Origin: a virus
Direction: 5' to 3' (one strand)
DNA: 64,000 nt
Virus record (IMG/VR): IMGVR_UViG_3300023082_000009
Coordinates: 1 to 64,000 of that record
The position numbers and the translations under genes were made by a program. Below, piece after piece: positions 28,784-60,243 of this stretch; the first letter of the stretch is position 1, and each line of letters begins with the position of its first letter. A model generated the notes under the pieces. The model ran no database searches and was not told the origin of the DNA. It was given only the letters and a program-made list of their open reading frames with translations.

Positions 28784-30517
28784 ATGTCAAATGCACCGCT
28801 AGCATCCGCCCTCGGTTCGTCCGAGACCCAACTCATGGCAGAGGTCTATAAGCTGTCGGACGCCGGGGGTTCGATCATCCAGATCCGTTCCCGCGAAGTA
28901 CCGCGCACCCTCACCACTCTGCGCAAATCCATCATCGCCGATGACGCCAACCGCTACCGCGAGTGGGACACCGTAAACGGCTGGCGCGTCTTCACGCTGG
29001 AGAATTTCAGCGAGCACAAGATGGCGGGCGACAACAACCTGGACTTCGACTTGGCACTCATGACCCCACTCAGTGAGCTGCGCAGCCAATCCAGCCCGGT
29101 CATCTCCGAGCCAGAGAAGATCCACTACTTCATCTACACGGACCTGCACCCGTTCATCGACGGCAACCCGCGCATGATCGCCATGCTCCAGCAGTACGCG
29201 GCGGTCCTGCCTTCCCGCAACATCTGCCTGATCCTGCTCACGCCCGAGGTGAACCTCACCTACCTGCCAATGGGCACCGTGCTGACCGTCGACGCCCCTA
29301 CGCCTACCGCCGAGGAACTGGAGACCTGCCTGCGCAAGTTGACCGTAGCCAGCGAGCAGGACACGGAAGCGTGGCCGGATGGCCTGGACATCGAAGAAGA
29401 TGAGTACCACCTGATCAGCCACCTCGGCCAGGGTATGACTCGTTATGAGTTCGAGCAGTACGCATCCATTGCCATCGTCGAGCACGGCTCCAAGGGCAGC
29501 ACCTGCCTGGAAGCGGCCTGTCTGATCGAAGGCATCTCGAAGGGCAAGACCGAGGTGGTCAAACAGACCGACATCCTCGAACTGTTCCGCACCGAGAACA
29601 TGGACGACGTGGGCGGCATGAACAAGTTGAAGGACTGGATCGACGACCGCGCCGATTGCTTCTCCGACGATGCCAAGAAGTTCGGCGTCCAGGCACCCAA
29701 GGGCATTGCTATCGTCGGCGTGCCCGGCACCGGTAAATCGCTCATCGCCAAGGCCATCGCCAGCCGTTTGAACGTGCCACTCCTGCGCCTGGACTTCGGG
29801 CGGGTATTCAGCAAGTTCATCGGCGACTCCGAGAGCCGTATGCGCGCAGCCCTCAAGATGGTCGACCAGATGGGCCACCTTGTCCTGTTCGCAGATGAGA
29901 TCGACAAAGGCCTGGGCGGTATTGGCCAGGGCGGCGGCGACAGCGGCACCAGCTCCCGCGTACTGGGTGCGTTCCTCACTTGGCTCCAGGAGAACGAGTC
30001 CAACGTATTCGTCGTGGTCACCGCCAACACCATCACCAACCTGCCGCCTGAGCTGTTCCGTAAAGGCCGTATGGATGAAGTGTTCAGCGTTGGCCTGCCC
30101 GGCCCGTCCGAGCGTCGCGAAGTCCTGGAAGTCCATCTGCGTAAGCGTGATCGCAACATCGCCGACTACAGCGAAAAGGACATCGCTCGTTTCATTGAAG
30201 CGTCGGCCACCCGCGTGCCTGCCGAGATCGAAGCGGCGGTCAAGGACGGTCTGATCGCCGCCTACAACGACAAGAAGGCGGACGACATCACCATGGACCA
30301 CATCATCGGCGCCCTGGAGAACTCGATCCCCATGGCCACGTCGCAGAAGGCGAAGATTCAAGCGATCATCGACTGGGCACGCGACAATGCCACGCCGGTC
30401 AACTACGAAGAGCAGGAGCTGGCGCCAAGCGTACCCGGCGTCACCGGCAACGACAGCGTGGCACCGCGCCGTGTAACTCGCCGCGTACCGCCTACTGCCC
30501 GCCCTGACCAAGTGTAA
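28784..30517 (+). CDS. AAA+ ATPase, Ycf46-like
   Basis: DVGGMNKLKDW, Walker A GVPGTGKS, Walker B LFADEIDK, LPPELFRKGRMDE; degenerate N-terminal AAA-like domain. Confidence 0.9.
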   Translation: MSNAPLASALGSSETQLMAEVYKLSDAGGSIIQIRSREVPRTLTTLRKSIIADDANRYREWDTVNGWRVFTLENFSEHKMAGDNNLDFDLALMTPLSELRSQSSPVISEPEKIHYFIYTDLHPFIDGNPRMIAMLQQYAAVLPSRNICLILLTPEVNLTYLPMGTVLTVDAPTPTAEELETCLRKLTVASEQDTEAWPDGLDIEEDEYHLISHLGQGMTRYEFEQYASIAIVEHGSKGSTCLEAACLIEGISKGKTEVVKQTDILELFRTENMDDVGGMNKLKDWIDDRADCFSDDAKKFGVQAPKGIAIVGVPGTGKSLIAKAIASRLNVPLLRLDFGRVFSKFIGDSESRMRAALKMVDQMGHLVLFADEIDKGLGGIGQGGGDSGTSSRVLGAFLTWLQENESNVFVVVTANTITNLPPELFRKGRMDEVFSVGLPGPSERREVLEVHLRKRDRNIADYSEKDIARFIEASATRVPAEIEAAVKDGLIAAYNDKKADDITMDHIIGALENSIPMATSQKAKIQAIIDWARDNATPVNYEEQELAPSVPGVTGNDSVAPRRVTRRVPPTARPDQV

Positions 30518-30527
30518 GGAGCCGACC

Positions 30528-31151
30528 ATGAGCCAGATGTCAGGCGTGTCGCTTTGCTACGGCAAGGTCAATCTGCCCGACCAGGGGCAGACGGTAGCCG
30601 TGCTGCGATTGAAAGCTCCGTTCGATAAGGCCATGTCGGCAACTCTCTGCGGCAAGGCATTCCTCAACACCAAGGAGTATTGCGCGGCCACCCGTAACCG
30701 GGACATCGGCGGCGGGTTCACCCGGCAGCGGGTGGAGCACGAGCAAGGCACCCTGATCCTGCTCCAGGTCTCCCGCACCCGCCGAGGTGTGCCACACGCA
30801 GACGGGGCCATGGTCCTGCGGCTCCGCAATGGGGCCGACCTGCTGAGCATCTCCGCTCGGCTCCCGATGGGCGGGGGCTCGATCCTGGGTGAGCAGATCC
30901 AGATCTTCGCAGGGGCGGCAGACATCTGCGCACCGGAGGAGCTGGCCCTGCTCGGGGTGAAGATTCCGAAGTGGTACGCGGAGCGGTACCTGGACCCGCA
31001 GGAAGTGGCGCAGCTCTTTGACGTATCGGTAGTACGGGCGGGCGAGATTGCCCGGCCTACGCTGCATGCGGTAGCCACCTCGGAAGGCGTTGTGATCAAG
31101 GCCGTAGGGGAGGAAGCACCACGCCGCATGCGGATGAGGAGGAACACCTGA
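30528..31151 (+). CDS. Hypothetical protein
   Basis: AAGGAG RBS; Arg-rich C-terminus. Confidence 0.7.
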   Translation: MSQMSGVSLCYGKVNLPDQGQTVAVLRLKAPFDKAMSATLCGKAFLNTKEYCAATRNRDIGGGFTRQRVEHEQGTLILLQVSRTRRGVPHADGAMVLRLRNGADLLSISARLPMGGGSILGEQIQIFAGAADICAPEELALLGVKIPKWYAERYLDPQEVAQLFDVSVVRAGEIARPTLHAVATSEGVVIKAVGEEAPRRMRMRRNT

Positions 31152-32116
31152 TGCCAGACGCACGAGTAGAGCTATGGCGCGATCCTCGCATGATGCAGGA
31201 CGTGCTTACCTACACCTTCACCTACACTCGCGAGCAGTTCCACGAGATGGAGCGTGATCTGGTCATGTCTGCGCGTAACACGGTAGCCCAGGAGCTTTCC
31301 CAGCTGATCTACCAGCGCCTGGGAGAGCTAGGGCTGCGGGGAGCCACCATGGCCGCCTGGATGGAGGCTGGATCTGGGCAGGCGCGGCAGTACGGCCTGG
31401 GCCTGGACATGGCTAACCCTCAACACATGGTAGGCCTGGGGCTACTTGTTGCTGCGGAGTACCACCGCCCCACTTTCGTCAACCTGATGGATCTGGACCG
31501 TGGGGTAGAGGTGCGGCTGGAGTGTGGCTACAACAACCTGGAGTACACGGTAAACCTGTACGTGCATGTCAGGGTTCCAGCGCACTTGGCGTACCGGGGT
31601 GGCCGCTCCCTGAGCATGGGAGAGGCGCCTATACGAGGGGACCGGTACCGTATGGGCGGCAGCGAAGTGAACTTGGTCCAGGAGAGTATGACCCTCGACC
31701 TGGGCGGAGAGCTGCGCAGCATGCCACGAGGCCCGCGCCGGGCGGAGGTGTCATTAAACGGAGTCGACGTTGGCTCCTTCACGGATCTCACCGTGGCCGC
31801 CAATATCACGGGAGGCGAGGCAGTAACACTGCGTGACCCTGCCATGGTAGTAGCGGCTCGCGAGAACCCGGAGCGGGAGAGCATACGCAACGAGGCCAGG
31901 GCACTCACCAATCAGCAACAACTACGCAACCAGGAGCGCATCCTGGAGCAGAACAACATGCGGCAGCAGCAGGTGGCCGCAGCAAGAGCAGCACTCGACA
32001 AACCCCAGGGTGAGTTGAAGCCGCGCAAAGCCAAGAGGGTCAGTGTCGGTACCGAGACACCGCCCCTTGAGGCAGAATCACCACGTCGATTGAAACTTCG
32101 GCGAGACCGAAAATAA
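31151..32116 (+). CDS. Hypothetical protein
   Basis: TGATG coupling; coiled-coil and Arg-rich C-terminus. Confidence 0.7.
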   Translation: MPDARVELWRDPRMMQDVLTYTFTYTREQFHEMERDLVMSARNTVAQELSQLIYQRLGELGLRGATMAAWMEAGSGQARQYGLGLDMANPQHMVGLGLLVAAEYHRPTFVNLMDLDRGVEVRLECGYNNLEYTVNLYVHVRVPAHLAYRGGRSLSMGEAPIRGDRYRMGGSEVNLVQESMTLDLGGELRSMPRGPRRAEVSLNGVDVGSFTDLTVAANITGGEAVTLRDPAMVVAARENPERESIRNEARALTNQQQLRNQERILEQNNMRQQQVAAARAALDKPQGELKPRKAKRVSVGTETPPLEAESPRRLKLRRDRK

Positions 32117-32121
32117 CCAAC

Positions 32122-32137
32122 GTGCAATTGATTGCAC
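32122..32137. repeat. Dispersed palindrome copy (abuts RBS, reverse)
   Basis: GTGCAATTGATTGCAC. Confidence 0.9.
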
Positions 32138-32150
32138 AGGAGGCAACAAC

Positions 32151-32594: not shown

Positions 32595-32629
32595 TCCACT
32601 CACCCGGCCATAGGCCAGAGGACCGCACC

Positions 32630-34155: not shown

Positions 34156-35511
34156 ATGAAGTACAACCACGGGCACCACACTTTGTCGACCCTGGCAAAG
34201 ACGCTGACCACCAAAGACGACGCTCACTTCATCGCCTACATCGAAGTGATGTCCGTTCTGGGCAAGTTCTGGTCCGCCCGGTTCACCCCCAGCGAGTTCC
34301 TGGTCCTCAGTTTCCTGGCCAATCGCACGCTGATTTTCCGTAAACGGGCGGAGGCAATCACCCGTAGACACTTCGAGGAGGGCATCTCGTCGGAGAGAGG
34401 GGACACCTGCACAGGCTGCGGAGTGAGCGAACACGCCCGAGTCAGGGCTTTAAACTCTTTGTGTTCCCGCAATTTCATCAACGTACACTGCTTTTTGGAA
34501 GGCAAAACAGAGACCAAGCCCCGGATCTACGAGCTGAATTATGAGCTTTTAGTAGAGGGCCACGACCTCGGGGAGATCCGAAACATGCTAAAACGTAGCC
34601 GAACACTCGACCGAGATAAGCGTCCCGAGGACGATTTTTATGCCGAAAATACCCCCCGACAATTCGCGGGGGTACCCCCCGACAATCGTGGAGGCTTAAC
34701 AGAGCTATTACATAGCTCTAAAAGAACTTCTATTAACATAGAAGAGTCGGCAGCTGCGCAGCCGAGCCAATCGAGGTTGAAGGTTGGTAAGAAGACAGTA
34801 GCGGGCGCAATCAATTGCACACCCAAACCTCCGCCTACTGGTAATGCCGCAGAGCGCATCGCGCAGATCCAAGCTGACACTACGAAAGCTCGGACCACCC
34901 GCGTGGCTACTGCAAAGACCCTCCCCGCCCGGCGCTGGGAGATCAAGGATCTACAGGCCCTCCTTGACCAGGGGCGCGCCGACGCGGGCGTCACCGTGCC
35001 TCGCGTTATGGCGACTACCAAAGGGGCGGGTGTGTTGTTCAAGCGGATGAAGGAAGCCGAGATCACCGACGCGCTGGAGTTCTTCACCTGGACCTTCCAG
35101 AACTGGGGCACCGTGGCCTCGGCCAACCGCCGCGCCAAGGCCAAGCAGTTGAAGGACACCAAGGCGTCGAACAGCGAGATGTCCCTGATCCCGAACTTCG
35201 CGGAGCTGGCCTACCGCTTCCCCTACATCCTCGCGTTCTTCAACGACCGCAAGTACACCAAGGTGCAGGAAGAGCAGAAGGTTGTCCGGCAGAAGCAGGA
35301 GACCCGCGCCCTCGCAGAGAAGCAGCAGGTGGCCATTGCTACCCGCCGCGACATCGTGCGCCAGCAGGACATCGAGCAACGCGACAAAGACCGAGCTGCC
35401 CAGGAGCGTCGCGTAGCCCGCCCGGTCGTGCGCCGCAGCCGCCAGCTCGTCGACGACCTGGACGAACCGTTGCCAGCCTACAAAGAAAGGGAGTGGAACC
35501 CAGATGAGTAA
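34156..35511 (+). CDS. Putative replication initiator (N-terminal winged-helix)
   Basis: FTPSEFLVLSFLANRT...AITRRHF...ALNSL pattern; internal direct repeats; upstream of loader-like and helicase genes. Confidence 0.6.
   Translation: MKYNHGHHTLSTLAKTLTTKDDAHFIAYIEVMSVLGKFWSARFTPSEFLVLSFLANRTLIFRKRAEAITRRHFEEGISSERGDTCTGCGVSEHARVRALNSLCSRNFINVHCFLEGKTETKPRIYELNYELLVEGHDLGEIRNMLKRSRTLDRDKRPEDDFYAENTPRQFAGVPPDNRGGLTELLHSSKRTSINIEESAAAQPSQSRLKVGKKTVAGAINCTPKPPPTGNAAERIAQIQADTTKARTTRVATAKTLPARRWEIKDLQALLDQGRADAGVTVPRVMATTKGAGVLFKRMKEAEITDALEFFTWTFQNWGTVASANRRAKAKQLKDTKASNSEMSLIPNFAELAYRFPYILAFFNDRKYTKVQEEQKVVRQKQETRALAEKQQVAIATRRDIVRQQDIEQRDKDRAAQERRVARPVVRRSRQLVDDLDEPLPAYKEREWNPDE
34650..34740. 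repeat. Iteron-like direct repeats plus AT-rich inverted repeat (candidate origin)
   Basis: TACCCCCCGACAAT at 34650 and 34673; AGAGCTA-TTACA-TAGCTCT at 34701-34719. Confidence 0.55.
34805..34820. repeat. Dispersed palindrome copy (in initiator CDS)
   Basis: GCGCAATCAATTGCAC. Confidence 0.85.
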
Positions 35512-36109: not shown

Positions 36110-37380
36110 GCACAGGATTGAAATTCATCGCTTCGGCGATCCAGCACCAGGCGGGGAACGCGATCATCCGCGTCGACCCCGACCTGCTGATCACGGAGCA
36201 AGAGGTAGCGGTCTACGAGTTCTGCCGTGACTACTACCGCAGCTACCGCGAAGTGCCCACGCCCGCGATGGTCCAGGAGAACCTGAACATCCGCATGCCT
36301 CGGGTAGAAGGGCCGGTGGGTTTCTACGAAGACGAACTCCAGGATCGCTTCAACTTCGAGGTGGTCCGGGAGGGCTTCACCGATCTGCGCTCGATGGTCC
36401 AGGAAGGCAAGCCCGGTCCGATGATCGAGACCATGGAGCAGACCATCCGGCGCATCCGTCGGACCCGTCGCGGCCAGGGCGGGATGATCAACATCGGCGA
36501 AGCCATGACCTTGGCCATCGACCGCCTGCAAGCCCTCCAGGGGAGCGGCGGGATGTCAGGGGTACCTACCCCTTGGCCGACCCTCAATCGCATCACCAGC
36601 GGCTACCAGAACGCCGACCTGATCACCTGGGTGGGCCGGACCTCCCTCGGTAAGACGATGATGCTCCTGGCCCAAGCCGAGTTCGCCTATGACAACGGCT
36701 ACTCGGTTCTTTTCGTTACGACGGAGATGGCCTCGGAAGCAATCGCACGACGCTGGATGGCCATGAAGTGGGGCTTCGATCCCGAGGCCCTCAAGTCGGC
36801 CCAGGTCTCCACTTACACCCTGCGCAAGATGCGTGCGCTGAACGTCGAACTCCTCGGGCGGGAGCGCTTCCGTTTGCTCAGCGCCGGGATGAAGGGTGAC
36901 CTTGCCATGGTCGAGGCCGCCATCGAAGAGATGCAGCCCGACATCCTGTTCCTGGACGGTGTGTACCTGATGCGCCCGAGCGGCAAGCAAGTACCCCGCA
37001 GCAAGACCGAGCAGGTCTCTGCCGTGTTCGACGAACTCAAGCAACGCAACATCGACACCAATATCCCGTTTGTCGTCAATACCCAGTTCAACCGGTCATC
37101 CGGGAAGGGCGGTAAAGAGGGCAGCCTGGAAAGCATCGGCCTCTCCGACACGATTGGCCAACACAGCTCCATCGTAATTGCGATCAAGCCTGGACCCACG
37201 GACAACTGGCACCACTCCCGAGAGCTGGACTTGCTCAAGGGGCGGGAAGGTGAACAGGGCAAGGTGAACATCAATTACCGCTTCAAACCTACGGATCTCA
37301 GCGAGATGTCGGATGAGCAACTGGAGGAATGCAGCAATGGGGCGCCCGCTATCGGAAGCGATGGCGAGATCTACACTTGA
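36106..37380 (+). CDS. Replicative DnaB-like helicase
   Basis: GVPTPWPTLN, Walker A GRTSLGKT, TTEM, FLDGVYLM, TQFNR, KGREG. Confidence 0.92.
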   Translation: MSTGLKFIASAIQHQAGNAIIRVDPDLLITEQEVAVYEFCRDYYRSYREVPTPAMVQENLNIRMPRVEGPVGFYEDELQDRFNFEVVREGFTDLRSMVQEGKPGPMIETMEQTIRRIRRTRRGQGGMINIGEAMTLAIDRLQALQGSGGMSGVPTPWPTLNRITSGYQNADLITWVGRTSLGKTMMLLAQAEFAYDNGYSVLFVTTEMASEAIARRWMAMKWGFDPEALKSAQVSTYTLRKMRALNVELLGRERFRLLSAGMKGDLAMVEAAIEEMQPDILFLDGVYLMRPSGKQVPRSKTEQVSAVFDELKQRNIDTNIPFVVNTQFNRSSGKGGKEGSLESIGLSDTIGQHSSIVIAIKPGPTDNWHHSRELDLLKGREGEQGKVNINYRFKPTDLSEMSDEQLEECSNGAPAIGSDGEIYT

Positions 37381-37390: not shown

Positions 37391-40270
37391 ATGACATGCA
37401 ACCGCGACCTTTGTGAGGGGTGCCCGATTGACGGGCTCCATGAGCCAGTCGAGCCGTTGGGCTACGAGGACGCTCCCTACCTCATCGTGACAGACACACC
37501 GAGCAAGGCAGGTGCCAAAGCTGGCCGCCTCCTTGCACCTTCCCACAAGGCAATGCTGTTCAAGCACATGGGCAACGAGCAGTTCACCGAGGACCAGTTC
37601 CAGTACCACCCTCTCTGCCTCTGCCCGTTCGACCAGGACCAGTACAAGAACACCGAGAAGAAGAAGATCTTCAAACACTGCCGGGCGCACCTGGAGGACT
37701 TCATCGACGAGATCCGTCCCGAGGTGATCATCCCCCTGGGCAGCGAGGCCGCGTGCCAAGTCTTCAACAAGTCGGTGAAGATCACCCAGGTGAAAGGTCT
37801 GGGTGCTCAGTCCGATGAGTTCGGCGTGCCGATCTTCCCGCTCCAGAACCCAGGCCTCGCCACTTTCCGTCCTGAGAACGAACCAGTCCTCGCGGCGGAC
37901 ATTGCGTCGTTCGGGCGGTTGGTGGATGCAGGCTTCGACATCGCCAAAGCTGACGACTTCATGACGGGCGATTACACCGAGGTGACTGACCTCCAGTTCC
38001 TCATCGACGGCAAGCACGAACTGCTCTCGTACGATACCGAGACCACCGGCCTGCGCTGGTACCAGAAGGGCGTCAACGTCCGCACCTACGACGAGGCCAA
38101 GCACAAAGGCAAGGACTGGTTCCGCCCACGGTTCCAGATCCTTACGATGCAGTTCACCGTGAAGACCGGCGAGGCGTTTATCCTGGTCTGGGACCACCCA
38201 GAACGCCCGATCCCCGAGGAGCGCAAGCCTGTATTGCGTAACCAGCTTCGGCAGCTGTTGTGCGCACCAGAAACCACGGTAATCGGACAGCGCATCAAGT
38301 TCGATAACGTGGCTCTTTGGATGACCGAGGGTATCCGTTTCCCTATCGGCGGGTGCACCCAGATGCTGTGCGCGATCCACGATGAAAACCTGCCCGAGAA
38401 GAACCTGGACATCCTCACCAAGATCCATGCGCCGGAGATGGCCGGGTACGCCGACCGCTTCAACGCCAGCGTGGACAAGTCGAGGATGTGGGAAGTCCCG
38501 ATCAAGACCATGATCCCGTACGGCGGTGGCGATACCGATGCAGCGTTCCGCGTCTACAACGAGCTGGAGCGCCTCGTGCAGGAAGACGAAAAGAACTGGA
38601 ACCACTACTGCCGCGTCTCGATCCCAGGCCTCAACGCCCTGGCCGCAATGGAGACCCGAGGCATGCTCGTGGATCTCGAAGTGGCCCTGCCAGAGTTCCA
38701 GGCCTACCTGGAGGAGGAGGTGCTGCGCCAGCGCAACAGCCTGCTGGCCCAGGTGCACCGCGACATCAAGCGCGACCACATCGAAGCCAAGAAGGGCGAC
38801 GTGGAAGAGGCCCTCAAGTTCTCCCGTCAAGAGTTCCTCAAGGACATCCTGTTCAACCATCCGAAGGGCTTCAAACTCAAGCCGAAGGTGTGGACCAAGA
38901 CGACAGAGAAACTGCCGGACCACATGAAGGAGCCGAGCACCAGCTCGAAGGACCACCTGCCGTTCTTCTTCGAGAGCTGCCCCTTCACGTTCGAGCTGGC
39001 CGAGTACGTCAAAGACTCCACCATGCTGCGCAACAACGTCCAGGGCTTCCAGGACAAGTTCGTGGTAGATGGATGGTGCCGACCGACCTACTTCCTGGAC
39101 GTGGCGGTGACCCGTCGTACGGCCTCGCGTGACCCCAACGGCCAGAACTTTCCGAAGCGTGGCAAGAAGGCCAAGATGTACCAGCGTTCGTTCATCGCGC
39201 CCAAGGGCAAAGTGATCATCGCGTGCGACTTATCGCAGGCCGAGCTGCGCATCGCGGGCGACATGGCCAACGACAAAGAGATCATCAGGATCTACAACGA
39301 AAACGGCGATATTCACATCACCACGGCTGCTCTCGCGATGGGCATCAGCGAAGAGAAGTTCGCCCTGCTCCCGGCCAAGGAACGTAAGGAGTGGCGGCAG
39401 AAGGCCAAGGCGATCAACTTCGGTTTCATCTACGGGATGTCGTGGAAGAAGTTCATGGCTTACGCCAAGACCCAGTACGGGGTGGAGTTCACCGAGACCG
39501 AAGCCAAGAACATCCGGTCGAACTACTTCAAGAAGTACAAGGGCATTGCAGCGTGGCACGAAGTGGTCAAGAACTTCGTCAAGCAACACGGCTTCGTCCG
39601 CTCCTACAGCGGCCTCGTGCGCCACCTGCCAAGCGTTTACTCCGAGGAGGAGTGGATTCAGGCGGAGGCCATGCGCCAAGGCATCAACAGCCCGGTGCAA
39701 GAGTTCGGCTCCACCCTGGGCGTGATCAGTCTCGGGCGGATGAACGAAGAGATGGACCCGGTGTACCTGGAAGTGTTTGGCTTCATCCACGACGCCATCT
39801 ACGCCTACGTCGACGAGAAGTATGTCGACTGGGGCCTCAAGACACTCAAGGGCTACATGCAGTCCAACGACCTGGAAGATCTGTTTGGCCGGAAGATGAA
39901 GGTGCCGATCATCGCCGACGCGGCGTTTGGCTGGAACCAGGGCGAGCTGTACGAGCTGGGCGACTACGGTGGCTTCGACCTCGACACCCCGTACGACTTC
40001 ACCCAGATCCAGGACAAGGACGGCAATCAGCTGGTCGATCTGCCACCGCAGGAGATCCCACCAAATGGCGGTTTCCTCACCCGCTCCCCGTACACCGAGG
40101 TCACCGACCTGGAAGACGAAAGCGTTGTGGTCGCAGTGCGCCGTCGCCACCTGGGCGTAGCACCGCCACGCCAAGCACAGGTCAAGCCACGCCGGGTGGC
40201 CGTCCGGGAGGAGGAACCGGAGCAAGTCAAGGCGGTCAAGCGGACGTACCGCAGCCGCGAATCAGTGTAG
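37391..40270 (+). CDS. DNA polymerase family A with N-terminal UDG-like domain and 3'-5' exonuclease
   Basis: YDTETTGL (Exo I), DLSQAELRI (motif A), RQKAKAINFGFIYG (motif B), IHDAIY (motif C). Confidence 0.95.
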   Translation: MTCNRDLCEGCPIDGLHEPVEPLGYEDAPYLIVTDTPSKAGAKAGRLLAPSHKAMLFKHMGNEQFTEDQFQYHPLCLCPFDQDQYKNTEKKKIFKHCRAHLEDFIDEIRPEVIIPLGSEAACQVFNKSVKITQVKGLGAQSDEFGVPIFPLQNPGLATFRPENEPVLAADIASFGRLVDAGFDIAKADDFMTGDYTEVTDLQFLIDGKHELLSYDTETTGLRWYQKGVNVRTYDEAKHKGKDWFRPRFQILTMQFTVKTGEAFILVWDHPERPIPEERKPVLRNQLRQLLCAPETTVIGQRIKFDNVALWMTEGIRFPIGGCTQMLCAIHDENLPEKNLDILTKIHAPEMAGYADRFNASVDKSRMWEVPIKTMIPYGGGDTDAAFRVYNELERLVQEDEKNWNHYCRVSIPGLNALAAMETRGMLVDLEVALPEFQAYLEEEVLRQRNSLLAQVHRDIKRDHIEAKKGDVEEALKFSRQEFLKDILFNHPKGFKLKPKVWTKTTEKLPDHMKEPSTSSKDHLPFFFESCPFTFELAEYVKDSTMLRNNVQGFQDKFVVDGWCRPTYFLDVAVTRRTASRDPNGQNFPKRGKKAKMYQRSFIAPKGKVIIACDLSQAELRIAGDMANDKEIIRIYNENGDIHITTAALAMGISEEKFALLPAKERKEWRQKAKAINFGFIYGMSWKKFMAYAKTQYGVEFTETEAKNIRSNYFKKYKGIAAWHEVVKNFVKQHGFVRSYSGLVRHLPSVYSEEEWIQAEAMRQGINSPVQEFGSTLGVISLGRMNEEMDPVYLEVFGFIHDAIYAYVDEKYVDWGLKTLKGYMQSNDLEDLFGRKMKVPIIADAAFGWNQGELYELGDYGGFDLDTPYDFTQIQDKDGNQLVDLPPQEIPPNGGFLTRSPYTEVTDLEDESVVVAVRRRHLGVAPPRQAQVKPRRVAVREEEPEQVKAVKRTYRSRESV

Positions 40271-49569: not shown

Positions 49570-51063
49570 ATGGCAAACACCAAAGCTAAATCCGCTCCGG
49601 TTGAGGAAGCGGCTGCCGACATCGAAGTCGGTTCCAATGTCACCTTCCTCGGCTACGATGCCGACACCCCCGAAGCCGAACGCATCCTCGAAGCTGGCGA
49701 GCGTTACGAAGTAATCGAACTGCCCGGCACCACCGAGATCGACGGCGAAGTTGTCGAAACCGGTTACGTTCTGCGCCTGCCGAACCCTGACTTCAACAAG
49801 AAGAAAAAGGTTCACGCCGAAACCAACCCTGAATTCCTGGAAACCGAAGTCTTCGCCGAAGAGATCGAACTCTACGTTGAAGGCGACGATGCGGGTGCCG
49901 AAGGTGGCGAAGCTGCCGACGCGGGCGCTGATGCCCCAGGCGATGATGACCCTCTGACCTACGAAGAGCTGGCCGGTTACGACAAAGCCCAGCTGCTCGA
50001 ATTCGCAGAAGTCAACGAAGTCAAGCTGACCGCAGCTGACAAGAAAACCGACAAGGCGCTCCTGGCCAAGCTGGCTGCCGTCTACGAGCTGAGCCCTGCC
50101 GAGCCTGCCCCTACCAAGGCACCGGCCAAACCAGCAGCCAAAACTGCCGCAGCCAAGCCTGCCGCCGAAGCGCCTGCTGCCAAGCCTGAAACCGCCGCAG
50201 CCAAGAAAAAGCGTGAAGCTGCCGAAGCCGCGCAGAAGACCGCAGCCGCTGCCAAGAACAAAGGCGTGAACAAGTCGCCCGAAGGCGAAGTCGATCCTGA
50301 CGAAGTGCCGGACCTGGACAACGAAGACGATGCCGTTCTGGCGTTGATCGACGGTGACGTGGATCTGGTCGAAGTAGCCCAGGAACTGGAATCGGCGGTG
50401 GCCGTGTCCGAGTACCAACTCGGCGGCGTGCTGTACCACATCAAAAAAGAAAAAGTGCATCTGGCCGTCGACAAGAAGGGCAAGCTGCTCAACCCTGAAT
50501 ACGGCGAAACGGGCGGCTTCAAGCTGTTCCTCCAGGAGAACTTCAACCTGGACTACCGCAAGGCCACCTACCTGATCGACATCTACATCAACTTCACCCA
50601 GGCCGGTATCGAAAACCCGTCCGAAGTTGTTGGCCGTATCGGCTGGACCAAGGCAAGCAAGATCGCCAAGCCGCTGGGCCTGCCTGACGCTGACGTAGAA
50701 GGCCTGATCCAGGCTGCCGAGAACAACACCGTTCAAGACCTGTCTACCATCATCAAAGATGAATTCACGGTCGGCGGCGGTGAGGGCGCCAGCAAAGGCT
50801 CCGAAGGTACCAAGGTCAATCGCCTGACCCTGCGCTTCCGCTTCGTTGAAGAAGAAGCCAACGTGGTCGAGGACATCCTCAAGGAAGCCGCTGAGAAACT
50901 CGGCGTCAAAGAAGATGAAGCCTTGTTCCAGATCCTGACCGAGTATCACGCACAAGCCCTGACCGGCGACGCTGATGCCCAGGACGTGGAAGACACTGCC
51001 AAGGCAGCGGCCAACGCCAAGCCAGCTACACGCGGTAAGCCTCGTGGCGCAGCTCGTGCCTAA
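49570..51063 (+). CDS. Acidic protein with AKP-rich linker, putative DNA-binding/organising protein
   Basis: Own promoter and terminator; strongly biased codons; GF...YRKA...IGWTKA C-terminal domain. Confidence 0.7.
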   Translation: MANTKAKSAPVEEAAADIEVGSNVTFLGYDADTPEAERILEAGERYEVIELPGTTEIDGEVVETGYVLRLPNPDFNKKKKVHAETNPEFLETEVFAEEIELYVEGDDAGAEGGEAADAGADAPGDDDPLTYEELAGYDKAQLLEFAEVNEVKLTAADKKTDKALLAKLAAVYELSPAEPAPTKAPAKPAAKTAAAKPAAEAPAAKPETAAAKKKREAAEAAQKTAAAAKNKGVNKSPEGEVDPDEVPDLDNEDDAVLALIDGDVDLVEVAQELESAVAVSEYQLGGVLYHIKKEKVHLAVDKKGKLLNPEYGETGGFKLFLQENFNLDYRKATYLIDIYINFTQAGIENPSEVVGRIGWTKASKIAKPLGLPDADVEGLIQAAENNTVQDLSTIIKDEFTVGGGEGASKGSEGTKVNRLTLRFRFVEEEANVVEDILKEAAEKLGVKEDEALFQILTEYHAQALTGDADAQDVEDTAKAAANAKPATRGKPRGAARA

Positions 51064-51131: not shown

Positions 51132-51893
51132 ATGCCAACTCCAATTCGCCCAGGTCGTAAGTCGGTGAACGTGACCCGACCAGAGAAGGGCAGTACCCCG
51201 GCACGCCCGTCGCGCCCTGCGCCACGGCCAAAGCCAACCGACATGTCCAAGGTCAAACTGCGCCTTGAGTACGTGGACATCAATGACATCCAGCCCTACG
51301 AATGGAACGCACGCGACAACGCCAAGGCTGTGACTGCCGTGGCCAACTCGATCAGAGCGTTCGGCTTTGTCGTGCCCGTAGTGATCGACGCCAACGGCGT
51401 GCTGGGCGCTGGCCACACTCGTGTCGAAGCAGCCAAGACCCTGGGAATGCTGGAGGTTCCTGCGGTGCGGGCGGAGCACTTGACCAAGGAACAGATGGAC
51501 GCCTTCCGTATCGCCGATAACAAGGTGGCGGAGATGGCAACCTGGAATACCTCGATGCTGGCGGATGAGATGGACAAGCTGACCGGCCTGTTCGACTTCA
51601 CCGACTTCGGTTTCGGCCAGGGCGAGATCGACTGCCTTGCGTCCCTGGTAGGCGACGACTGCCTGTCTACTGCCAACCTGGGCGCCCTCACCGGTACCGC
51701 AGCAGGCGAAGAGACTCCAGGCCGCAGCGTTCGCCGTGCGCCGCTCCAGGCCCGCATCGTGATCGGTGAGCTGACCTTCTTTGTCCCCGCCGAGCAGTAC
51801 CGTAACTGGGTGCAGGGTCTGCGCGATCTGCACGACTTCAAAGACGAAGACATTGCGGCTGATCTGAAACGCCGCCTGGGGTTCCACGAATGA
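51132..51893 (+). CDS. ParB/Srx N-terminal domain protein
   Basis: PYEWNAR, SIRAFGFVVPVVID, AGHTR, RIADNK. Confidence 0.88.
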   Translation: MPTPIRPGRKSVNVTRPEKGSTPARPSRPAPRPKPTDMSKVKLRLEYVDINDIQPYEWNARDNAKAVTAVANSIRAFGFVVPVVIDANGVLGAGHTRVEAAKTLGMLEVPAVRAEHLTKEQMDAFRIADNKVAEMATWNTSMLADEMDKLTGLFDFTDFGFGQGEIDCLASLVGDDCLSTANLGALTGTAAGEETPGRSVRRAPLQARIVIGELTFFVPAEQYRNWVQGLRDLHDFKDEDIAADLKRRLGFHE

Positions 51894-52486
51894 AATACCT
51901 CCCTTGGATTGTTTGCTCCATCATCGCCCTGGCCTACCCCTTCGCCGGGTACCTGCCAGCCCTCGTACCTGGGACGGACTGGGGCCTCGTAGGCGTCCTG
52001 GCTGCACCGCTCCGGCATGCGACCCTTCTACACCTCGCGGTGAATCTGTTACCCTTGGCCTACCTCCTCAGCCTGATGCGCAACGACCCGCCTGCCCGTG
52101 TGATCATGGGCCTGCTGACCATCGTTGTAGTGGGAGGTATGTGGGTGTGGTTCTGGGGTCGACTCGGTATCCACGAAGGGGCAAGCGGCCTCACCCTCGG
52201 CGTGCTGGCAATGCTGGCGATGCGCACTGACTACCGATCCGTACTATCCGTTGCAGCCCTGGTGGGCACCGGCATCGCCCTTGAGTATGTGAACATACCC
52301 GAGGCGTCCTGGGAGACCCACCTGGGTGGCTTCGTGGCTGGAGCCTACTACGGGATCATCACACTGAACTGGAAGAGCAAGCGGGAGATGGACCATGACG
52401 ACGAATCGAGTAGTGCGCAGGCTACGCCATGCCCGGCCAAGTGCCGAAGTGACAGCCGACCACATTACCCTGGTCCCGGTCGATAA
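51890..52486 (+). CDS. Rhomboid-family intramembrane serine protease
   Basis: H-x4-HL-x2-N, GASG and HLGG catalytic motifs; multiple TM segments. Confidence 0.8.
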   Translation: MKYLPWIVCSIIALAYPFAGYLPALVPGTDWGLVGVLAAPLRHATLLHLAVNLLPLAYLLSLMRNDPPARVIMGLLTIVVVGGMWVWFWGRLGIHEGASGLTLGVLAMLAMRTDYRSVLSVAALVGTGIALEYVNIPEASWETHLGGFVAGAYYGIITLNWKSKREMDHDDESSSAQATPCPAKCRSDSRPHYPGPGR

Positions 52487-54971: not shown

Positions 54972-55760
54972 ATGCCCACGAATAACGAACGCCCTGGCGA
55001 ACGCCGCGTCATCATGCGCCGGAGTCGTGGGCAGATGCCTTTCAGCAGTGCAGGCCGGGTGGACGGTACCCCTCGGGAAGCCCCGGTGATCGACGACGAT
55101 ATTGACGACGCCATCGACCCTGACCAGATCGACGACCACGTACGCCAGCAGACCCGACGCCCTGCCCCAGGCCCGAGCCGTGGCGACGCGCCAGAGCGCA
55201 ACCCTGCCCAGATGCTTATGGACGTGGATGAGTCCGGCAGCGCCGCCTACAGCAAGGAATACCGCATGGTGCTGCTGCACAAGATGCTGGCGCGGAAGAT
55301 GCCCCTGCACGAGATCGCCCGGCACCTGCGCGTATCCATCTCCACCATCGAGAAGGACCGGGTGCGGTTGAAGGCCTGGATGCGCGAGCAGGCCAAGGAG
55401 ATGAACATCGACGAGATGATCGGCAGCCAAGTCGCTCTCTACGATGAGCTGACCGCCATGTCGTTGCGCATCGCCTCGAAGACCTCCGGCGAGGGTGCCG
55501 TGCCCGTGGCCATGCAGCTGGCCGCCATGCGTACCACCCTGGCAGCCAACGCTGACAAGACCCGGTTCCTCGGCGCCGCTGGTGTACTCGATGTGCTGCG
55601 CTTCCGTAAGGGCGATACCGGTGAAGCACAATCTGACATCCAGATCGTCATGGAGCGGACTGCCCGCATGCTCGCTGCCCTGGCAGAGGACGGCGGCGGC
55701 ATGGAGAACTTCGGCGACTTCTCCATCAACGATGTGGAACCTGAAAGCGAGGAACTGTGA
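54972..55760 (+). CDS. Terminase small subunit (putative, HTH)
   Basis: EIARHLRVSISTIEKD HTH; coupled to the large subunit. Confidence 0.65.
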   Translation: MPTNNERPGERRVIMRRSRGQMPFSSAGRVDGTPREAPVIDDDIDDAIDPDQIDDHVRQQTRRPAPGPSRGDAPERNPAQMLMDVDESGSAAYSKEYRMVLLHKMLARKMPLHEIARHLRVSISTIEKDRVRLKAWMREQAKEMNIDEMIGSQVALYDELTAMSLRIASKTSGEGAVPVAMQLAAMRTTLAANADKTRFLGAAGVLDVLRFRKGDTGEAQSDIQIVMERTARMLAALAEDGGGMENFGDFSINDVEPESEEL

Positions 55761-57667
55761 TGGCCGTTCAACGTAGAAGCGCCATGCGCAAGCAGCTGGT
55801 TATCCAGGAGGTCGAGCTGATCGCCGACGGCTTGGCCAACAAGCAGTTCTCCGAGATGTACCGGCACGCAGTCCTCTGCGCCATGAACGGCGACACCCGG
55901 CTGTTCGACTTCATGTCGGTCCTGGACCGCGTGCCCGTGAGCATCGAAGACTTCATCGACAGCCCTGAGTTCCTGGGCAGCACTGACCTTGAGATGTGGC
56001 CAGAGGTTCGCCGGGCGGTCATCGAAGAGAACAAGGACTGGTGGAAGGGCCTAGAAGGCGGAGCACGGGATACCTGCTGCCTCATGGGGTGCACCCGTAG
56101 CGGCAAGTCGACCCAGGCAATCATCGGTACCCTGTACGACTTCTACATCCTCACCTGCATGCAGAACCCGCAGAAGTGGTACGGCCTGCCCTCGGCTACC
56201 TCCATCGTGTTCCCGATCATTGGCGCGAAGCCACACGTAACGAAGAAGGTTGTGTATGCCCCGATGCGGAAGTGGATCGAGCGCATGCCCTACTTCCAGG
56301 CCTGGGCACAGCCCGACAAGAACATCGACAGCGAGATGCTGTTCACCGAGAAGAACTTGCGGATCACGCCCGTCGGCGGTAGCGAGGATGCGATCCTGGG
56401 TGAGGCGACCATCGGTGGCATCATCGACGAGATCAACTTCATGAACGTGGTGCAGAAGTCGAAGAAGGCCGAGGTGTCCACCGGGCGGTCCGGCGTCTAC
56501 GATCAGGCAGCGCAGATCTTCGATACGTTCAGCCGCCGTCGCCGTGGTACGTTCGCCAAACGCTTCCCGCAGATCGGCAAGATCTTCGCGGTGTCGTCCA
56601 CTCGGTACCGGGGCGACTTCACCGACAAGCTCAAGGCCGACGTGATCAAGCACGACATGAAGAACGTCTACATCTTCGACAAGAAGCAGTACGAGGTTCA
56701 GCCTGCATCCAACTACTGCGGCCAGACCTTCCGCCTTCTGATCGGTAACGATGTGCAGCACGAGACCCGCGTGCTCCGGGACGACGAGGAAGTGATCGAA
56801 GGCGCCTGGGTGGAGAACGTGCCTATCGAATGCCTCCAGGACTTCCAGCGTAAGCCGTACGACGCGCTGCGGGACATCCTGGGCCTGTCGTCCAACGTGA
56901 TCAGCCCGTTCATCAAATCGCGCCACAAGGTCTACGAGTGCGTGGAGGCTGGCCGGGAGGTTGGGCTGGAGTCCTTCCTCATCCGCGACCACGTTATCCT
57001 GGGCGAGCACGGGATGCCGCAGGTCAAGCATGCCCACTATTGCAAGAACCCATCGCGCCCTCGCTATGTTCACATCGACTTGTCGCAAACGGGTGACCGG
57101 TGTGGGATCGCGATGATCCGATTCGATGGCATGATGCACCTACAGCGGAGTGGTGACTTGACCGAGCTGCTGCCCACCGGGGCGGTAGAGATGGCTTGCT
57201 CCATTCAGCCGGATGCAAACAACGAGATCGACATCGCCGAGGTACGGGCCTTCGTCAAGAACCTGAGCCGGTTGTATGGCTACCCCATCAAGGGCGTGTC
57301 CTATGACGGCTTCGATAGTCGCGAGTCTATCCAGGCGTGGCGCAAGGATCGGATGCCTACCAAGATCATCTCGATGGACCGCACGAGCGCACCCTACAAG
57401 CAGTTCCGGGACGCGCTGTACGACCGTCGGATTGGTCTGCTCGATGACGCGGACGTGACCAGCGAGATCCTTGAACTGGAGTACGACGAGTCGAAGGACA
57501 AGGTAGACCACACCATCGTCGGCAAGAAGGACGTGGCGGATGCGATCTGCGGTGCGTACACCAACATGCTGGAGCGCCGGAGCACCTGGGAAGGCGTGGA
57601 TGAATCCCTGGCCGAGTCTGGCCGATACGATGGCGAGCGGTTCGGGGACGAACCACGCCCACACTAG
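55757..57667 (+). CDS. Terminase large subunit
   Basis: GCTRSGKS Walker A, IIDEINF Walker B, HIDL...D, YDGF, KVDH...KDVADA nuclease motifs. Confidence 0.9.
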   Translation: MMAVQRRSAMRKQLVIQEVELIADGLANKQFSEMYRHAVLCAMNGDTRLFDFMSVLDRVPVSIEDFIDSPEFLGSTDLEMWPEVRRAVIEENKDWWKGLEGGARDTCCLMGCTRSGKSTQAIIGTLYDFYILTCMQNPQKWYGLPSATSIVFPIIGAKPHVTKKVVYAPMRKWIERMPYFQAWAQPDKNIDSEMLFTEKNLRITPVGGSEDAILGEATIGGIIDEINFMNVVQKSKKAEVSTGRSGVYDQAAQIFDTFSRRRRGTFAKRFPQIGKIFAVSSTRYRGDFTDKLKADVIKHDMKNVYIFDKKQYEVQPASNYCGQTFRLLIGNDVQHETRVLRDDEEVIEGAWVENVPIECLQDFQRKPYDALRDILGLSSNVISPFIKSRHKVYECVEAGREVGLESFLIRDHVILGEHGMPQVKHAHYCKNPSRPRYVHIDLSQTGDRCGIAMIRFDGMMHLQRSGDLTELLPTGAVEMACSIQPDANNEIDIAEVRAFVKNLSRLYGYPIKGVSYDGFDSRESIQAWRKDRMPTKIISMDRTSAPYKQFRDALYDRRIGLLDDADVTSEILELEYDESKDKVDHTIVGKKDVADAICGAYTNMLERRSTWEGVDESLAESGRYDGERFGDEPRPH

Positions 57668-57992: not shown

Positions 57993-57994
57993 CC

Positions 57995-58843
57995 ATGCAA
58001 CAGTACCGCGAATTGATCAGCGACATCCTCCTGCGCGGCGAGGAGCGCAAATGGCGCAACGGCCACACCGGCATCAGTATCTTCGATGCCCGGATGGAGT
58101 TCGACTTGCGTGAAGGCTTCCCGCTCGAAGGGCTCAAGAAGGTGCCGTTCAAGACCGGGGTGGTAGGTGAGCTGATCGGCTTCATTCGCGGGTACACCAA
58201 CGCTGCGGACTTCCGTGCCCTGGGCTGCAACGTCTGGAACCAGAACGCCAACGAAGAGCCGAGCTGGCTGAACAACCCGGCACGTAAAGGGCACGACGAC
58301 CTGGGCCGCATCTACGGTGCGCAATGGCGGGACATCCGCGTCCAGGACGGCGGTAGCTACGCGGTGGTCGACCAGCTCTGGCAACTCCTGGCTGGCCTGC
58401 GCAGCGACCCGCACGGGCGGCGTCACGTAGTGTCCGCCTGGAACCCGGCTGAGCTGCACCTCATGGCCCTGCCTCCTTGCCACATGTTCTTCCAGTGCTA
58501 CGTGAGCAACGACGGGCACCTGGACCTCAAGATGTACCAGCGCAGTGCGGACGCCTTCCTGGGCATCCCGTTCAACATCGCCAGCTACGCGACGCTGATG
58601 CACATCCTGGCCCACTTCTGCAACCTCGTGCCGCGTCGTCTGATCATGGACCTGGGCGATGCCCACCTGTACACGAACCAGATTGATCTGGCCCACGAGA
58701 TGCTCAAGCGTTCGTGCCCGGAACTGCCCGACCTGGAGTTGAACACCGACGGGTGGGAAAGCCTGATGCACATCAAGCCCGAAGACTTCGCACTCAACGG
58801 GTACCGTCCACACGCTGCAATGAACTGCGAGATGGCCGTATGA
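57995..58843 (+). CDS. thyA: Thymidylate synthase
   Basis: LGRIYGAQWR, MALPPCH, YQRSADAFLGIPFNIASY, DAHLY. Confidence 0.95.
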   Translation: MQQYRELISDILLRGEERKWRNGHTGISIFDARMEFDLREGFPLEGLKKVPFKTGVVGELIGFIRGYTNAADFRALGCNVWNQNANEEPSWLNNPARKGHDDLGRIYGAQWRDIRVQDGGSYAVVDQLWQLLAGLRSDPHGRRHVVSAWNPAELHLMALPPCHMFFQCYVSNDGHLDLKMYQRSADAFLGIPFNIASYATLMHILAHFCNLVPRRLIMDLGDAHLYTNQIDLAHEMLKRSCPELPDLELNTDGWESLMHIKPEDFALNGYRPHAAMNCEMAV

Positions 58844-60243
58844 GAATCGTACGTACCCGACCGGCAGTCCTGGCCCAGGCTGTCCGTGACACCACCGCCG
58901 ACCAGCGCGGCAGCTCCGACCTCGTGGCCCGCGTGATCGAAGAGATCAAGGCCGAGTCCGGGCGCACTGCCAAGAAGGAGATGCTCAAGGCACTACGCGA
59001 CAGCAGCGACATCGCGCTCAAGGTGATGCTAGCCGTCTTCGACGTGAACCGTACCTACGGCATCAAGAAGGTACCGAGTGCCCGCGTGAAGGGTAACCCA
59101 CACTCCGGCAGCCGCGAGTTCAGCGACAACACCTGGGGCATCCTGGATGACTTGGCCAGCCGTAAGCTGACCGGCAATCGTGCCCAGGATGTCCTGGCCG
59201 TGGAGCTGGGCTTCCTGACGCAGCCATCGCGTGACCTGTTCACCGCCATCCTCCAGCAGAACCTGCGGGCGGGGTTCAGCGGCGACGTGGTAAACGAGGT
59301 CTGGGGCCCGGTCCTGCGCATCGTCAAGATCCAGCTGGCCAACACCTTCTTCATGAAGCAGAAGGCTGGCGAGAAGGGTCCGCGTAAGGTGAACCCGAAG
59401 GCCCGCTTCCCTGCCTACGACGACATCAAGTACGACGGCGTGCGCGGCTTCCGCCTGAGCGACGAGGACACCGGGTTCTTCTCGCGGGCCGGTCTCCCCC
59501 TGGAATGCCCGCCTGCCTTGCATACCCTGATCGGCGAGTTCCTGGAGGATGCCCGTGCGTTCTACGAGTGCGGTGCCGAGGAGGCGTTGTTGCTCGATTG
59601 CGAGATCGTGCCGCTTGCCGGTGGCTTCGCCGACATCATGAGTCAGGTGCGTGCCTCGAAGCGTGGCGCGAGCGACGGAACCACCGGTATTCGCATCATC
59701 GACATCATCACCAAGCAGGAGTACCTGGAGGGTAAGTCCTACGATAACCAGCGTGCCCGCCGTGAAGACCTGGAGCTGATGATCCAGCAGCCTTGGTTCA
59801 AGAAGTACGAGGGCTACATCAAGCTGACCGAAGGCCGCGAAGTGAAGAACGCCGAGGAGGCCCTGGCCTTCTACGCGGAGGTCGTGGCCAACGGCGGCGA
59901 AGGCACGATGCACAAGCACTACGACGATTACTGGGAAGCCAAGCGCACCGACGGCTGGTTGAAGCTCAAGCCTGCCGAGGAGATCGAAGGCAAGATCGTC
60001 GGGTACAAGGACGGTGCCAAGCACAGCAAGTGGGAAGGCTGGCTCGGGGCGGTCCTGGTCAAGCTACCCAACGGGGTGGTGGTATCCGTCGACGGTATGA
60101 CCGACAAGGTGCGCGAGTACATCCACCTGCACCGCGAAGAACTCCTGGGCGAGACAGTCGAACTGCTCTACCACGAGATGACCCCAGACGGCAGCCTGCG
60201 TCATCCACGGTTCAAGCCCGGCTTTGTACGGGACGATAAATAG
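58840..60243 (+). CDS. ATP-dependent DNA ligase
   Basis: KYDGVR, FSR, LDCEI, EGTMHK, WLKLK, GSLRHPRF. Confidence 0.92.
   Translation: MRIVRTRPAVLAQAVRDTTADQRGSSDLVARVIEEIKAESGRTAKKEMLKALRDSSDIALKVMLAVFDVNRTYGIKKVPSARVKGNPHSGSREFSDNTWGILDDLASRKLTGNRAQDVLAVELGFLTQPSRDLFTAILQQNLRAGFSGDVVNEVWGPVLRIVKIQLANTFFMKQKAGEKGPRKVNPKARFPAYDDIKYDGVRGFRLSDEDTGFFSRAGLPLECPPALHTLIGEFLEDARAFYECGAEEALLLDCEIVPLAGGFADIMSQVRASKRGASDGTTGIRIIDIITKQEYLEGKSYDNQRARREDLELMIQQPWFKKYEGYIKLTEGREVKNAEEALAFYAEVVANGGEGTMHKHYDDYWEAKRTDGWLKLKPAEEIEGKIVGYKDGAKHSKWEGWLGAVLVKLPNGVVVSVDGMTDKVREYIHLHREELLGETVELLYHEMTPDGSLRHPRFKPGFVRDDK

Follow-up and report, generated by a model that had tools for sequence, protein, structure and literature searches.

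In phage T7, the acidic tails of gp2.5 and gp4 bind basic patches on the polymerase. Beyond T4 and T7, to our knowledge, it is largely unknown how phages that form no nucleus gather their replication, recombination and packaging enzymes. [quoted passage not shown] Here we describe short arginine-rich peptides, henceforth called tags, that are carried at one end by about 20 unrelated DNA-handling proteins, mostly replication, recombination and packaging enzymes, encoded in bases 1 to 64,000 (the window) of the 94,879-bp phage genome IMGVR_UViG_3300023082_000009 from the IMG/VR database. Proteins are designated by the first base of their gene. An earlier annotation of the same stretch (the first-pass annotation) had proposed that the tags form a docking or localisation signal leading to a replication compartment, to the acidic 49570 protein or to an AAA ATPase. 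Judged from their sequences, the tags appear to be copies of one selected short linear motif, placed on flexible extensions of unrelated DNA-transaction proteins, while the compartment and the two receptors named before stand as candidates only.

Arginine is enriched at both ends of the 34 proteins encoded between positions 28784 and 60243. With random interior windows of the same proteins as control, 49 arginines were counted in residues 2 to 13 and 59 in the last 12 residues, against 27.9 (standard deviation 5.1) expected in either case (P < 2e-4 for both). At the N-termini, lysine is not enriched and acidic residues are depleted. The effect is much weaker in the structural module (26 and 22 versus 17.2). 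The order of the residues is not random either. All four-position patterns of a reduced alphabet were searched, with no prior motif, in the 20 residues at either end of each of the 134 proteins of 60 residues or more encoded in the whole 94.9-kb genome, using shuffles within each terminal stretch that keep its composition. The pattern R..R[ST]R was found 8 times (shuffle mean 0.41, z 11.9), phi[RK]R.R 10 times (0.95, z 9.3) and Rphi.R[ST] 8 times (0.73, z 8.5), with phi standing for a hydrophobic residue; family-wise, the maximum z under the null has its 95th percentile at 5.8. A terminal motif search against shuffled controls had been suggested in the first-pass annotation, and its outcome bears out an ordered signal.

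The motif is mostly terminal. Twenty of 32 matches to the regular expressions lie at most 20 residues from an end, the remainder being mostly in linkers such as IRRIRRTRRG of the DnaB-type helicase. Of 109 tagged N-termini in related genomes, 84 have their first dibasic pair at residues 3 to 6. The first RR is preceded by V, I, Q or T (position −1) and followed by T, V, I or L (position +1), with R coming next (position +2) in 38 of about 60 cases. These preferences give the consensus phi-R-R-[T/S/phi]-R, frequently with P or T after it; the previously given phi-phi-R-R/x-x-R comes close to it, being less exact. The same cores recur on non-homologous proteins, for example RIIRRTRT at the N-terminus of the 40326 protein and RIIRRTRV at the C-terminus of the polymerase of relative L005. 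The ligase, RuvC and two small proteins encoded outside the window carry RTRP or RSRP, and genome G004 has three C-terminal copies of KRTRP. The tags lie outside the folded cores, as had been noted before: Pfam cores start at residue 23 in RecA, at residue 19 in RuvC and at residues 45 and 24 for ParB_N, in the 959-residue polymerase the DNA_pol_A domain extends to residue 849, and in the AlphaFold2 model of RecA the confidence score (pLDDT) is below 50 for residues 1 to 10, with the first helix starting at residue 21. A consensus that is shared by non-homologous proteins, at either end and over deep divergence, is the pattern that a short linear motif with one receptor in common should produce.

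The closest named relatives of the phage are the Pseudomonas phages SM1 and PaMx31 (genus Samunavirus), with a polymerase about 64% identical at the protein level and the same gene order as the window; a megablast search with 20 kb gave no DNA-level match to phage records. All genes of the phage lie on the + strand, its GC content is about 0.61 and its ribosome-binding sites are of the Shine-Dalgarno (SD) type. We regard it as a Pseudomonas-type, 95-kb phage from a group of Samunavirus-like siphophages of about 95 kb with many metagenomic relatives. For comparison, 80 IMG/VR loci were retrieved with a RecA alignment, a search with the single RecA protein having returned no loci, and the same gene caller and statistic were applied to each group. 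In clade A (RecA at least 42% identical; 19 loci, 327 proteins), the first 12 residues contain 572 arginines versus 285±16 expected (z 18), and C-terminal arginine is enriched as well (z 6.9). In clade B (RecA 32-38% identical, GC about 0.5; 122 proteins), arginine plus lysine amount to 312 versus 183 in the first 12 residues (z 10.8), lysine taking over from arginine in part. Other RecA-encoding phages, taken as the outgroup (1067 proteins), have fewer arginines than expected over the same residues (726 versus 870, z −5.5) and acidic termini; their RecA starts directly at the first conserved helix and their polymerases have no tail. Regular expressions derived from the genome under study were also applied, as a replication test, to independent clade A loci. 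Termini of these loci have 33 matches to [RK]R[TS]R and interiors 7 (2.81 versus 0.10 per 1000 residues); the outgroup has 0 and 5, respectively. The tags are conserved in relatives, a point on which the first-pass annotation had allowed its proposal to fail. At the scale of whole genomes the signal is diluted, and outgroup genome G005 also shows a general C-terminal basic bias, so that the N-terminal enrichment and the ordered motif are the distinctive signals.

Protein families keep their tag at the same end, while the peptide itself drifts. N-termini are basic in 10 of 14 SSB-like proteins, 14 of 19 homologs of the 129-aa protein, 10 of 19 RecA proteins, 10 of 15 exonucleases and 12 of 15 ParB proteins; among the clade families, DnaB, PolA, primase and the CmoA-like methyltransferase showed no basic tag at their N-termini. 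Among 120 RecA homologs, 86 have at least four R or K in residues 2 to 16. In SM1, the AAA ATPase carries AVVRRDRAPRSR at the same, C-terminal, end, the counterpart of the 30528 protein carries PKVRTPRRR and the RuvC-like resolvase begins MRIRRTK. The polymerase tail reads SRIRRSR in SM1, RIIRRTRV in L005 and PRLRRTRA in L004, and orthologs of the putative small terminase have QRRIVVRRTR, RRVVLRRGR and RRISRRSR. For non-homologous tags, similarity within one genome exceeds that between genomes only weakly (z 1.9, P = 0.04). Many RecA N-termini read MARTK or MARTR (P0009, P0003-P0011), like the start of the histone H3 tail (ARTKQTARKS), which is probably a convergence of basic tails.

Retention of the tags in relatives together with their lack in other phages points to a shared address tag that probably gathers proteins at one site. 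In the mechanism we propose, a motif 3 to 6 residues from the N-terminus, or at most about 10 residues from the C-terminus, would act as a portable tether that concentrates the tagged proteins on the phage replication and recombination nucleoprotein. Acidic, aromatic-containing segments of the tail of a gp32-like SSB would be the likeliest docking sites, similar acidic tails of the DnaB-type helicase and of the 34156 protein could provide further ones, and direct DNA contact would probably contribute. By analogy with the T4, T7 and E. coli systems, we give such an SSB-centred hub with acidic-tail docking, that is, both the receptor and the recruitment function, a probability of roughly 0.4. 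A protein receptor is favoured by a motif that is ordered, terminal, clade-specific and kept per family, by the homologs of other phages, which lack the extensions, and by the presence of tags on the SM1 portal, the protease, an endolysin-like protein and the AAA ATPase, for none of which a role on DNA is obvious.

On its predicted structure, the 42695 protein is a gp32-type SSB with an OB-like core and a His/Cys3 zinc site. The four zinc ligands H81, C97, C104 and C107 are invariant in 16 sequences, and the model aligns with the RB69 and T4 gp32 cores over 162 and 163 residues, respectively (Z 8.3 and 7.7, root-mean-square deviation 4.9 and 4.8 Å), the next matches having Z of 5.4 or lower. 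The Foldseek match has a probability of 0.98 with an E value of only 0.011. A sequence search of the PDB gave no usable match, the single one (E 0.12) being an unrelated iron-sulfur protein. In the tail of the window SSB, acidic/aromatic patches alternate with RG(G)RR units, about ten in number; these patches are internal (DDYPDD, DPPFEEE) and the protein ends ALRGRRN, not in the canonical acidic C-terminal tip of SSBs, which is an acidic run with I/L-P-F or an aromatic residue. The SSB homologs of clade B do have such a tip in 5 of 5 cases (L023, L024, L025, L026 and L028; for instance DLDDEIPFN and DDEGISWG), and those of clade A (L004-L021) have an acidic patch followed by an RRxxxRR tag in 10 of 10. 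Other proteins of the replication machinery end in a comparable way: the C-termini of DnaB-type helicases are acidic across the clade, with aromatic residues near the end (DGEIYT, ADLDWVA, NMLDFMR), the clade B primases of L023 and L028 end NSDNIPF, resembling the SSB tip, and the 34156 protein has an acidic tail with aromatic residues. By analogy, the DnaB and primase tails suggest a T7-like network of acidic tails.

The window SSB has the gp32 fold and zinc site, its relatives begin with KRKST-type sequences (QKRKSTAF in L014, KGRKSTAF in L018), and in T4 a short basic, Ser/Thr-rich peptide near the N-terminus is combined with an acidic tail that recruits proteins (PMC12893549). The LAST motif, of the form (Lys/Arg)3(Ser/Thr)2 and at residues 3-7 in T4 gp32, is however found on the SSB alone, whereas here a similar peptide sits on about 20 clients, at either end, and the clade A SSB carries its tag after the acidic patch. 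Moreover, the N-terminus of the window SSB (QRPARPAR ... ARTSY) is degenerate relative to the LAST motif, and client tags such as RRTRT and KRTRP match that motif in composition only. The clade B SSB homologs, with their DDEIPF-like ends, and the acidic, aromatic DnaB tails resemble the C-terminal tip of E. coli SSB (PMC10018359), but the window SSB lacks a terminal tip. In both E. coli SSB and T7 gp2.5 and gp4, the basic partner is a folded pocket or patch, whereas the candidate partner here is a portable linear tag.

Several observations weigh against an SSB-centred hub. Tags are found on proteins with no evident need for SSB (SM1 portal, endolysin-like protein, prohead protease, small early proteins), and the window SSB has lost its terminal acidic tip. 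The likeness of tags within as compared to between genomes (z 1.9) gives no clear sign of co-evolution with a genome-specific receptor; it fits either a receptor conserved throughout the clade or DNA. AT-hook variants and the exchange of lysine for arginine fit plain binding to a polyanion such as DNA equally well. Finally, SSB, the 49570 protein and the AAA ATPase are candidate receptors that are all conserved across clades A and B; the link of the tags to any of them is confounded by shared ancestry, as all define the same clade.

A broader version of the SSB-centred hub, which we put forward only tentatively, is that throughout this family of siphophages of about 95 kb one terminal 'zip-code', phi-R-R-T/S-R, may bring 20-40 otherwise unrelated proteins to a membrane-less replication/recombination factory centred on SSB or an acidic scaffold, and that the SSB of the window's branch may have exchanged its acidic tip for a tag. 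Recruitment by a short linear motif in this manner would be without a described counterpart in phages. Encapsulin cargo-loading peptides, microcompartment encapsulation peptides and the T4 capsid targeting sequence likewise put one short terminal address label on many unrelated proteins, but those labels are hydrophobic or amphipathic and the window tags are polybasic; we know of no shell or compartment in this phage group. Shared terminal targeting peptides and electrostatic tail networks are known kinds of arrangement, and what is new is a polybasic terminal motif on about 20 clients across a phage clade. Full-text literature searches yielded no published description of these tags and, on the replication biology of Samunavirus, only genome announcements. 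If the proposal holds, a portable terminal peptide would be a simple organising principle for a widespread, barely studied phage group and would provide a compact tag to send proteins to phage replication sites. The switch between acidic tip and Arg tag would represent a natural experiment on the evolution of SSB hubs.

Among the alternatives, the one that survives best is that the tags are non-specific nucleic-acid-binding arms, in the manner of AT-hooks or histone tails, each of which would independently increase the affinity of its own protein for phage DNA, with no protein receptor involved; we consider this possible, if on the whole doubtful. The tags gather on DNA enzymes and are missing from enzymes of nucleotide metabolism, the SSB tail has RGG-like units, and the canonical AT-hook core (RGRP) stands at the same N-terminal place in 13 of 120 RecA homologs. 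The large-scale replacement of arginine by lysine in the lower-GC clade B suggests that charge is what counts, and the weak co-variation of tags within genomes agrees with independent arms. On the other hand, generic charge requires neither the strongly non-random order nor the narrow core (RRTR, KRTRP) kept over deep divergence. The tight placement 3 to 6 residues from the N-terminus, the fact that homologous enzymes of other phages function without such arms, and the tags on portal, protease, endolysin-like and AAA proteins speak against it as well. As with AT-hooks and histone tails, the tags are short peptides of DNA proteins that are disordered, rich in arginine and situated outside the folded domains. 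They differ in lacking the G-R-P core, containing aliphatic residues, having an ordered consensus of their own and being strictly terminal. None of the window tags has the RGRP core (ParB reads IRPGRK and RecA IIRGK), and in L017 the AT-hook is confined to RecA, the remaining tags keeping the phi-RR-x-R style. Even if the tags were mere DNA-binding arms, their proteome-wide, clade-specific addition would be unusual in itself.

Recognition by an AAA ATPase, which would take hold of the free basic ends in order to remodel, load or recycle complexes bound to DNA, is improbable. By its motifs, the 28784 protein is a classic AAA ATPase of the Cdc48/VAT-like type: Walker A (GVPGTGKS), Walker B (LFADEID) and the aromatic-hydrophobic-Gly pore loop (KFIGDSE) are intact, PF00004 matches with an E value of 6e-27, and VAT, Cdc48 and p97 come out as its closest counterparts in the PDB (E about 1e-49). 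Enzymes of the Cdc48/VAT family thread unstructured termini through their pore, and the strict terminal placement of the tags fits threading of free ends. The ATPase is acidic overall; four clade B genomes encode it, and one complete outgroup genome lacks it. However, this co-occurrence is confounded by shared ancestry, the ATPase itself and its two downstream neighbours are tagged, no known classic AAA ATPase selects Arg-rich tags, and there is no evident rationale for unfolding most of a replisome. Some basic terminal peptides are recognised by ClpX as degrons, for example the MuA C-terminal RRKKAI class, which the tags presumably resemble. The other candidate of the first-pass annotation, the 49570 protein, combines acidic disordered stretches with a KPAA-rich, H1-like region and a C-terminal helical domain, for which an atlas search gave only weak leads to ParB-HTH/DUF3102-like folds (TM-score < 0.5). 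KPAA/AKPAAK repeats of the histone-H1 or AlgP type occur in two proteins, encoded at 49570-51063 and 3666-4364.

No more credible is a role in binding another polyanion, such as anionic lipids or polyphosphate, or in modification, for example arginine methylation by the nearby S-adenosylmethionine (SAM) methyltransferases, a possibility that we rate as very improbable. Acidic lipids are bound by peptides that are both polybasic and hydrophobic, arginine methylation in eukaryotes classically takes place in RGG and RxR contexts, and the module encodes two methyltransferases of unassigned substrate. The tags, however, have too few hydrophobic residues for a membrane-targeting helix, and no evidence links the methyltransferases to protein substrates. 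The tags are not twin-arginine (Tat) signal peptides, in which RR precedes an h-region of about 12-20 hydrophobic residues and an AxA cleavage site: none of them is followed by a hydrophobic stretch, and tags are also found at C-termini.

That the tags are an artefact, whether of composition, of wrongly called starts or of the in-frame reading of SD sequences, is effectively refuted by interior controls, composition-preserving shuffles and outgroup phages analysed with the same gene caller. GC content, named in the first-pass annotation as a possible cause of the arginine enrichment, is ruled out by the interior controls taken from the same proteins and by L013 (GC 0.46), which has the trait, and L068 (GC 0.61), which has not. 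A DNA repeat is excluded as well: arginine codons are heterogeneous (CGC, CGT, CGA, CGG, AGA, AGG) and differ from tag to tag, which places the signal at the protein level. Some contribution of in-frame SD sequences is seen in the share of AGG among arginine codons, 11% at C-termini versus 3% in interiors, and in the 30528 tag, two arginines of which are encoded by AGG AGG doubling as the SD of the next gene; this accounts for at most about 10 of 88 terminal arginines. The general C-terminal basic bias even in outgroup genome G005 (R+K zC 4.5) also lends the artefact some support. Mis-called starts are ruled out by inspection of ribosome-binding sites, each tagged N-terminus beginning at an ATG with an SD-like GGAG or GAGG upstream, by agreement with the SM1 GenBank annotation and by independent database gene calls, which give the same N-terminal peptides for 120 RecA homologs; the gene caller reproduced 65 of 70 curated starts and 58 of 63 SM1 GenBank starts. 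Separately, over all gene starts of the window, AGA makes up 13% of arginine codons in residues 2 to 13 versus 2% in interiors, which points to a preference for A-rich codons just past the start, added to the signal at the amino acid level.

The tags, receptor candidates and assigned genes are listed in Table 1. All 15 peptides quoted in the first-pass annotation were recovered in well-supported genes, with the qualification that PVVRRSR of the 34156 protein lies 21-27 residues from the C-terminus rather than at the end. ThyA, dcd and RNase H had been described as free of tags, which proved correct, and the CmoA-like methyltransferase is untagged, too. The labels 'initiator' for the 34156 protein and 'TerS' for the 54972 protein are provisional, and that of large terminase is weakly supported.

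Table 1. Positions of tags, receptor candidates and assigned genes in the window. Gene assignments rest on Pfam and PHROGs.
Feature	Position	Strand	Protein or remark
gp32-like SSB, tagged; leading hub candidate	42695..43975	+	N-terminus QRPARPAR, end RTALRGRRN
Acidic/H1-like (KPAA-rich) 497-aa protein; second hub candidate	49570..51063	+	Conserved in clades A and B
Single-ring classic AAA ATPase; third receptor candidate	28784..30517	+	Pfam/PHROGs
N-terminal motif CRIVQRSG, weaker, related	468..491	+	Prohead protease (450-1079)
N-terminal KRIQRS	1057-1080	+	Scaffold-like 1054 protein
C-terminal tag APRRVTRR	30461..30484	+	Cdc48/VAT-like AAA ATPase (28784-30517)
C-terminal tag PRRMRMRR	31119..31142	+	207-aa protein (30528-31151)
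C-terminal tag PRRLKLRR	32081..32104	+	321-aa protein (31151-32116)
Near-C-terminal PVVRRSR, then acidic tail	35422..35442 (+/- a codon or two)	+	451-aa protein (34156-35511)
Internal copy IRRIRRTRRG	36445..36474	+	DnaB-type helicase linker, ahead of DnaB_C (from residue 152)
C-terminal tail with two basic motifs (PRRVAVR ... KRTYRSR)	40187..40258	+	Polymerase, beyond DNA_pol_A domain
N-terminal tag RIIRRTRT	40338..40361	+	151-aa protein (40326-40781)
C-terminal tag TRKTRSRR	42709..42732	+	124-aa protein (42367-42741)
C-terminal tag RPPARLPR	45635..45658	+	SF2 helicase (43979-45667)
N-terminal tag QPRVIRPK	46007..46030	+	129-aa protein (45998-46387)
N-terminal tag ARTIIRGK	46402..46425	+	RecA (46399-47538)
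N-terminal tag IIRRIRTR	47930..47953	+	Cas4/PD-(D/E)xK-type exonuclease (47924-48925)
N-terminal tag RIQRSRPG	48930..48953	+	RuvC-like resolvase (48927-49439)
N-terminal tag TPIRPGRK	51138..51161	+	ParB-like protein (51132-51893)
N-terminal tag NRVVRRLR	52404..52427	+	ParB-methyltransferase fusion (52395-53951)
Basic C-terminus AFSKRLRR	53916-53939	+	ParB-methyltransferase fusion
N-proximal tag RRVIMRRS	55002..55025	+	Putative small terminase (54972-55760)
N-terminal tag QRRSAMRK	55769..55792	+	Large terminase (55760-57667)
N-terminal tag RIVRTRPA	58843..58866	+	ATP-dependent DNA ligase (58840-60243)
DUF1257	gene start 32151	+	Pfam/PHROGs
DUF2997	gene start 32630	+	Pfam/PHROGs
DnaB-type helicase	gene start 36106 (36106-37380)	+	Pfam/PHROGs
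UDG-PolA polymerase	gene start 37391 (37391-40270)	+	Pfam/PHROGs
Primase	gene start 41335	+	Pfam/PHROGs
SF2 helicase	gene start 43979	+	Pfam/PHROGs
RecA	gene start 46399	+	Pfam/PHROGs
Holliday-junction resolvase	gene start 47546	+	Pfam/PHROGs
Cas4-like exonuclease	gene start 47924	+	Pfam/PHROGs
RuvC	gene start 48927	+	Pfam/PHROGs
ParB	gene start 51132	+	Pfam/PHROGs
ParB-methyltransferase	gene start 52395	+	Pfam/PHROGs
SAM methyltransferase	gene start 54251	+	Pfam/PHROGs
Large terminase	gene start 55760	+	Weakly supported: phrog_9, E 4.5e-7
ATP-dependent ligase	gene start 58840	+	Pfam/PHROGs

The motif is also found outside the interval 28784-60243, at the N-termini of the prohead protease and the scaffold-like protein, the SM1 counterparts of which read LRRISRDG and QRIRRST, and at the C-termini of small proteins at genome positions 69663, 86369, 88102 and 91683.

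Some features of the gene arrangement are worth recording. In the AAA module (28784-33232), the ATPase gene is followed by genes for two proteins with PRR-phi-x-phi-RR C-termini and then by those for DUF1257 and DUF2997. The polymerase is a fusion of uracil-DNA glycosylase (UDG), exonuclease and PolA (PF03167, PF01612 and PF00476); a 2025 preprint (10.1101/2025.03.26.645540) describes a subfamily in which phage A-family polymerases have an active UDG as fusion partner. The putative small and large terminase genes (54972-57667) lie within the replication/recombination module, far from the head genes at the left end, and adjoin the genes for ParB, the ParB-methyltransferase and the CmoA-like methyltransferase. 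All orthologs of the putative small terminase share a conserved acidic C-terminus ending in ...E-L. An open reading frame at 51890-52486 (MKYLPWIVC...), of uncertain status as a gene, would encode a membrane-protein-like product with no counterpart in SM1; it shares 92 nt with the start of the ParB-methyltransferase gene.

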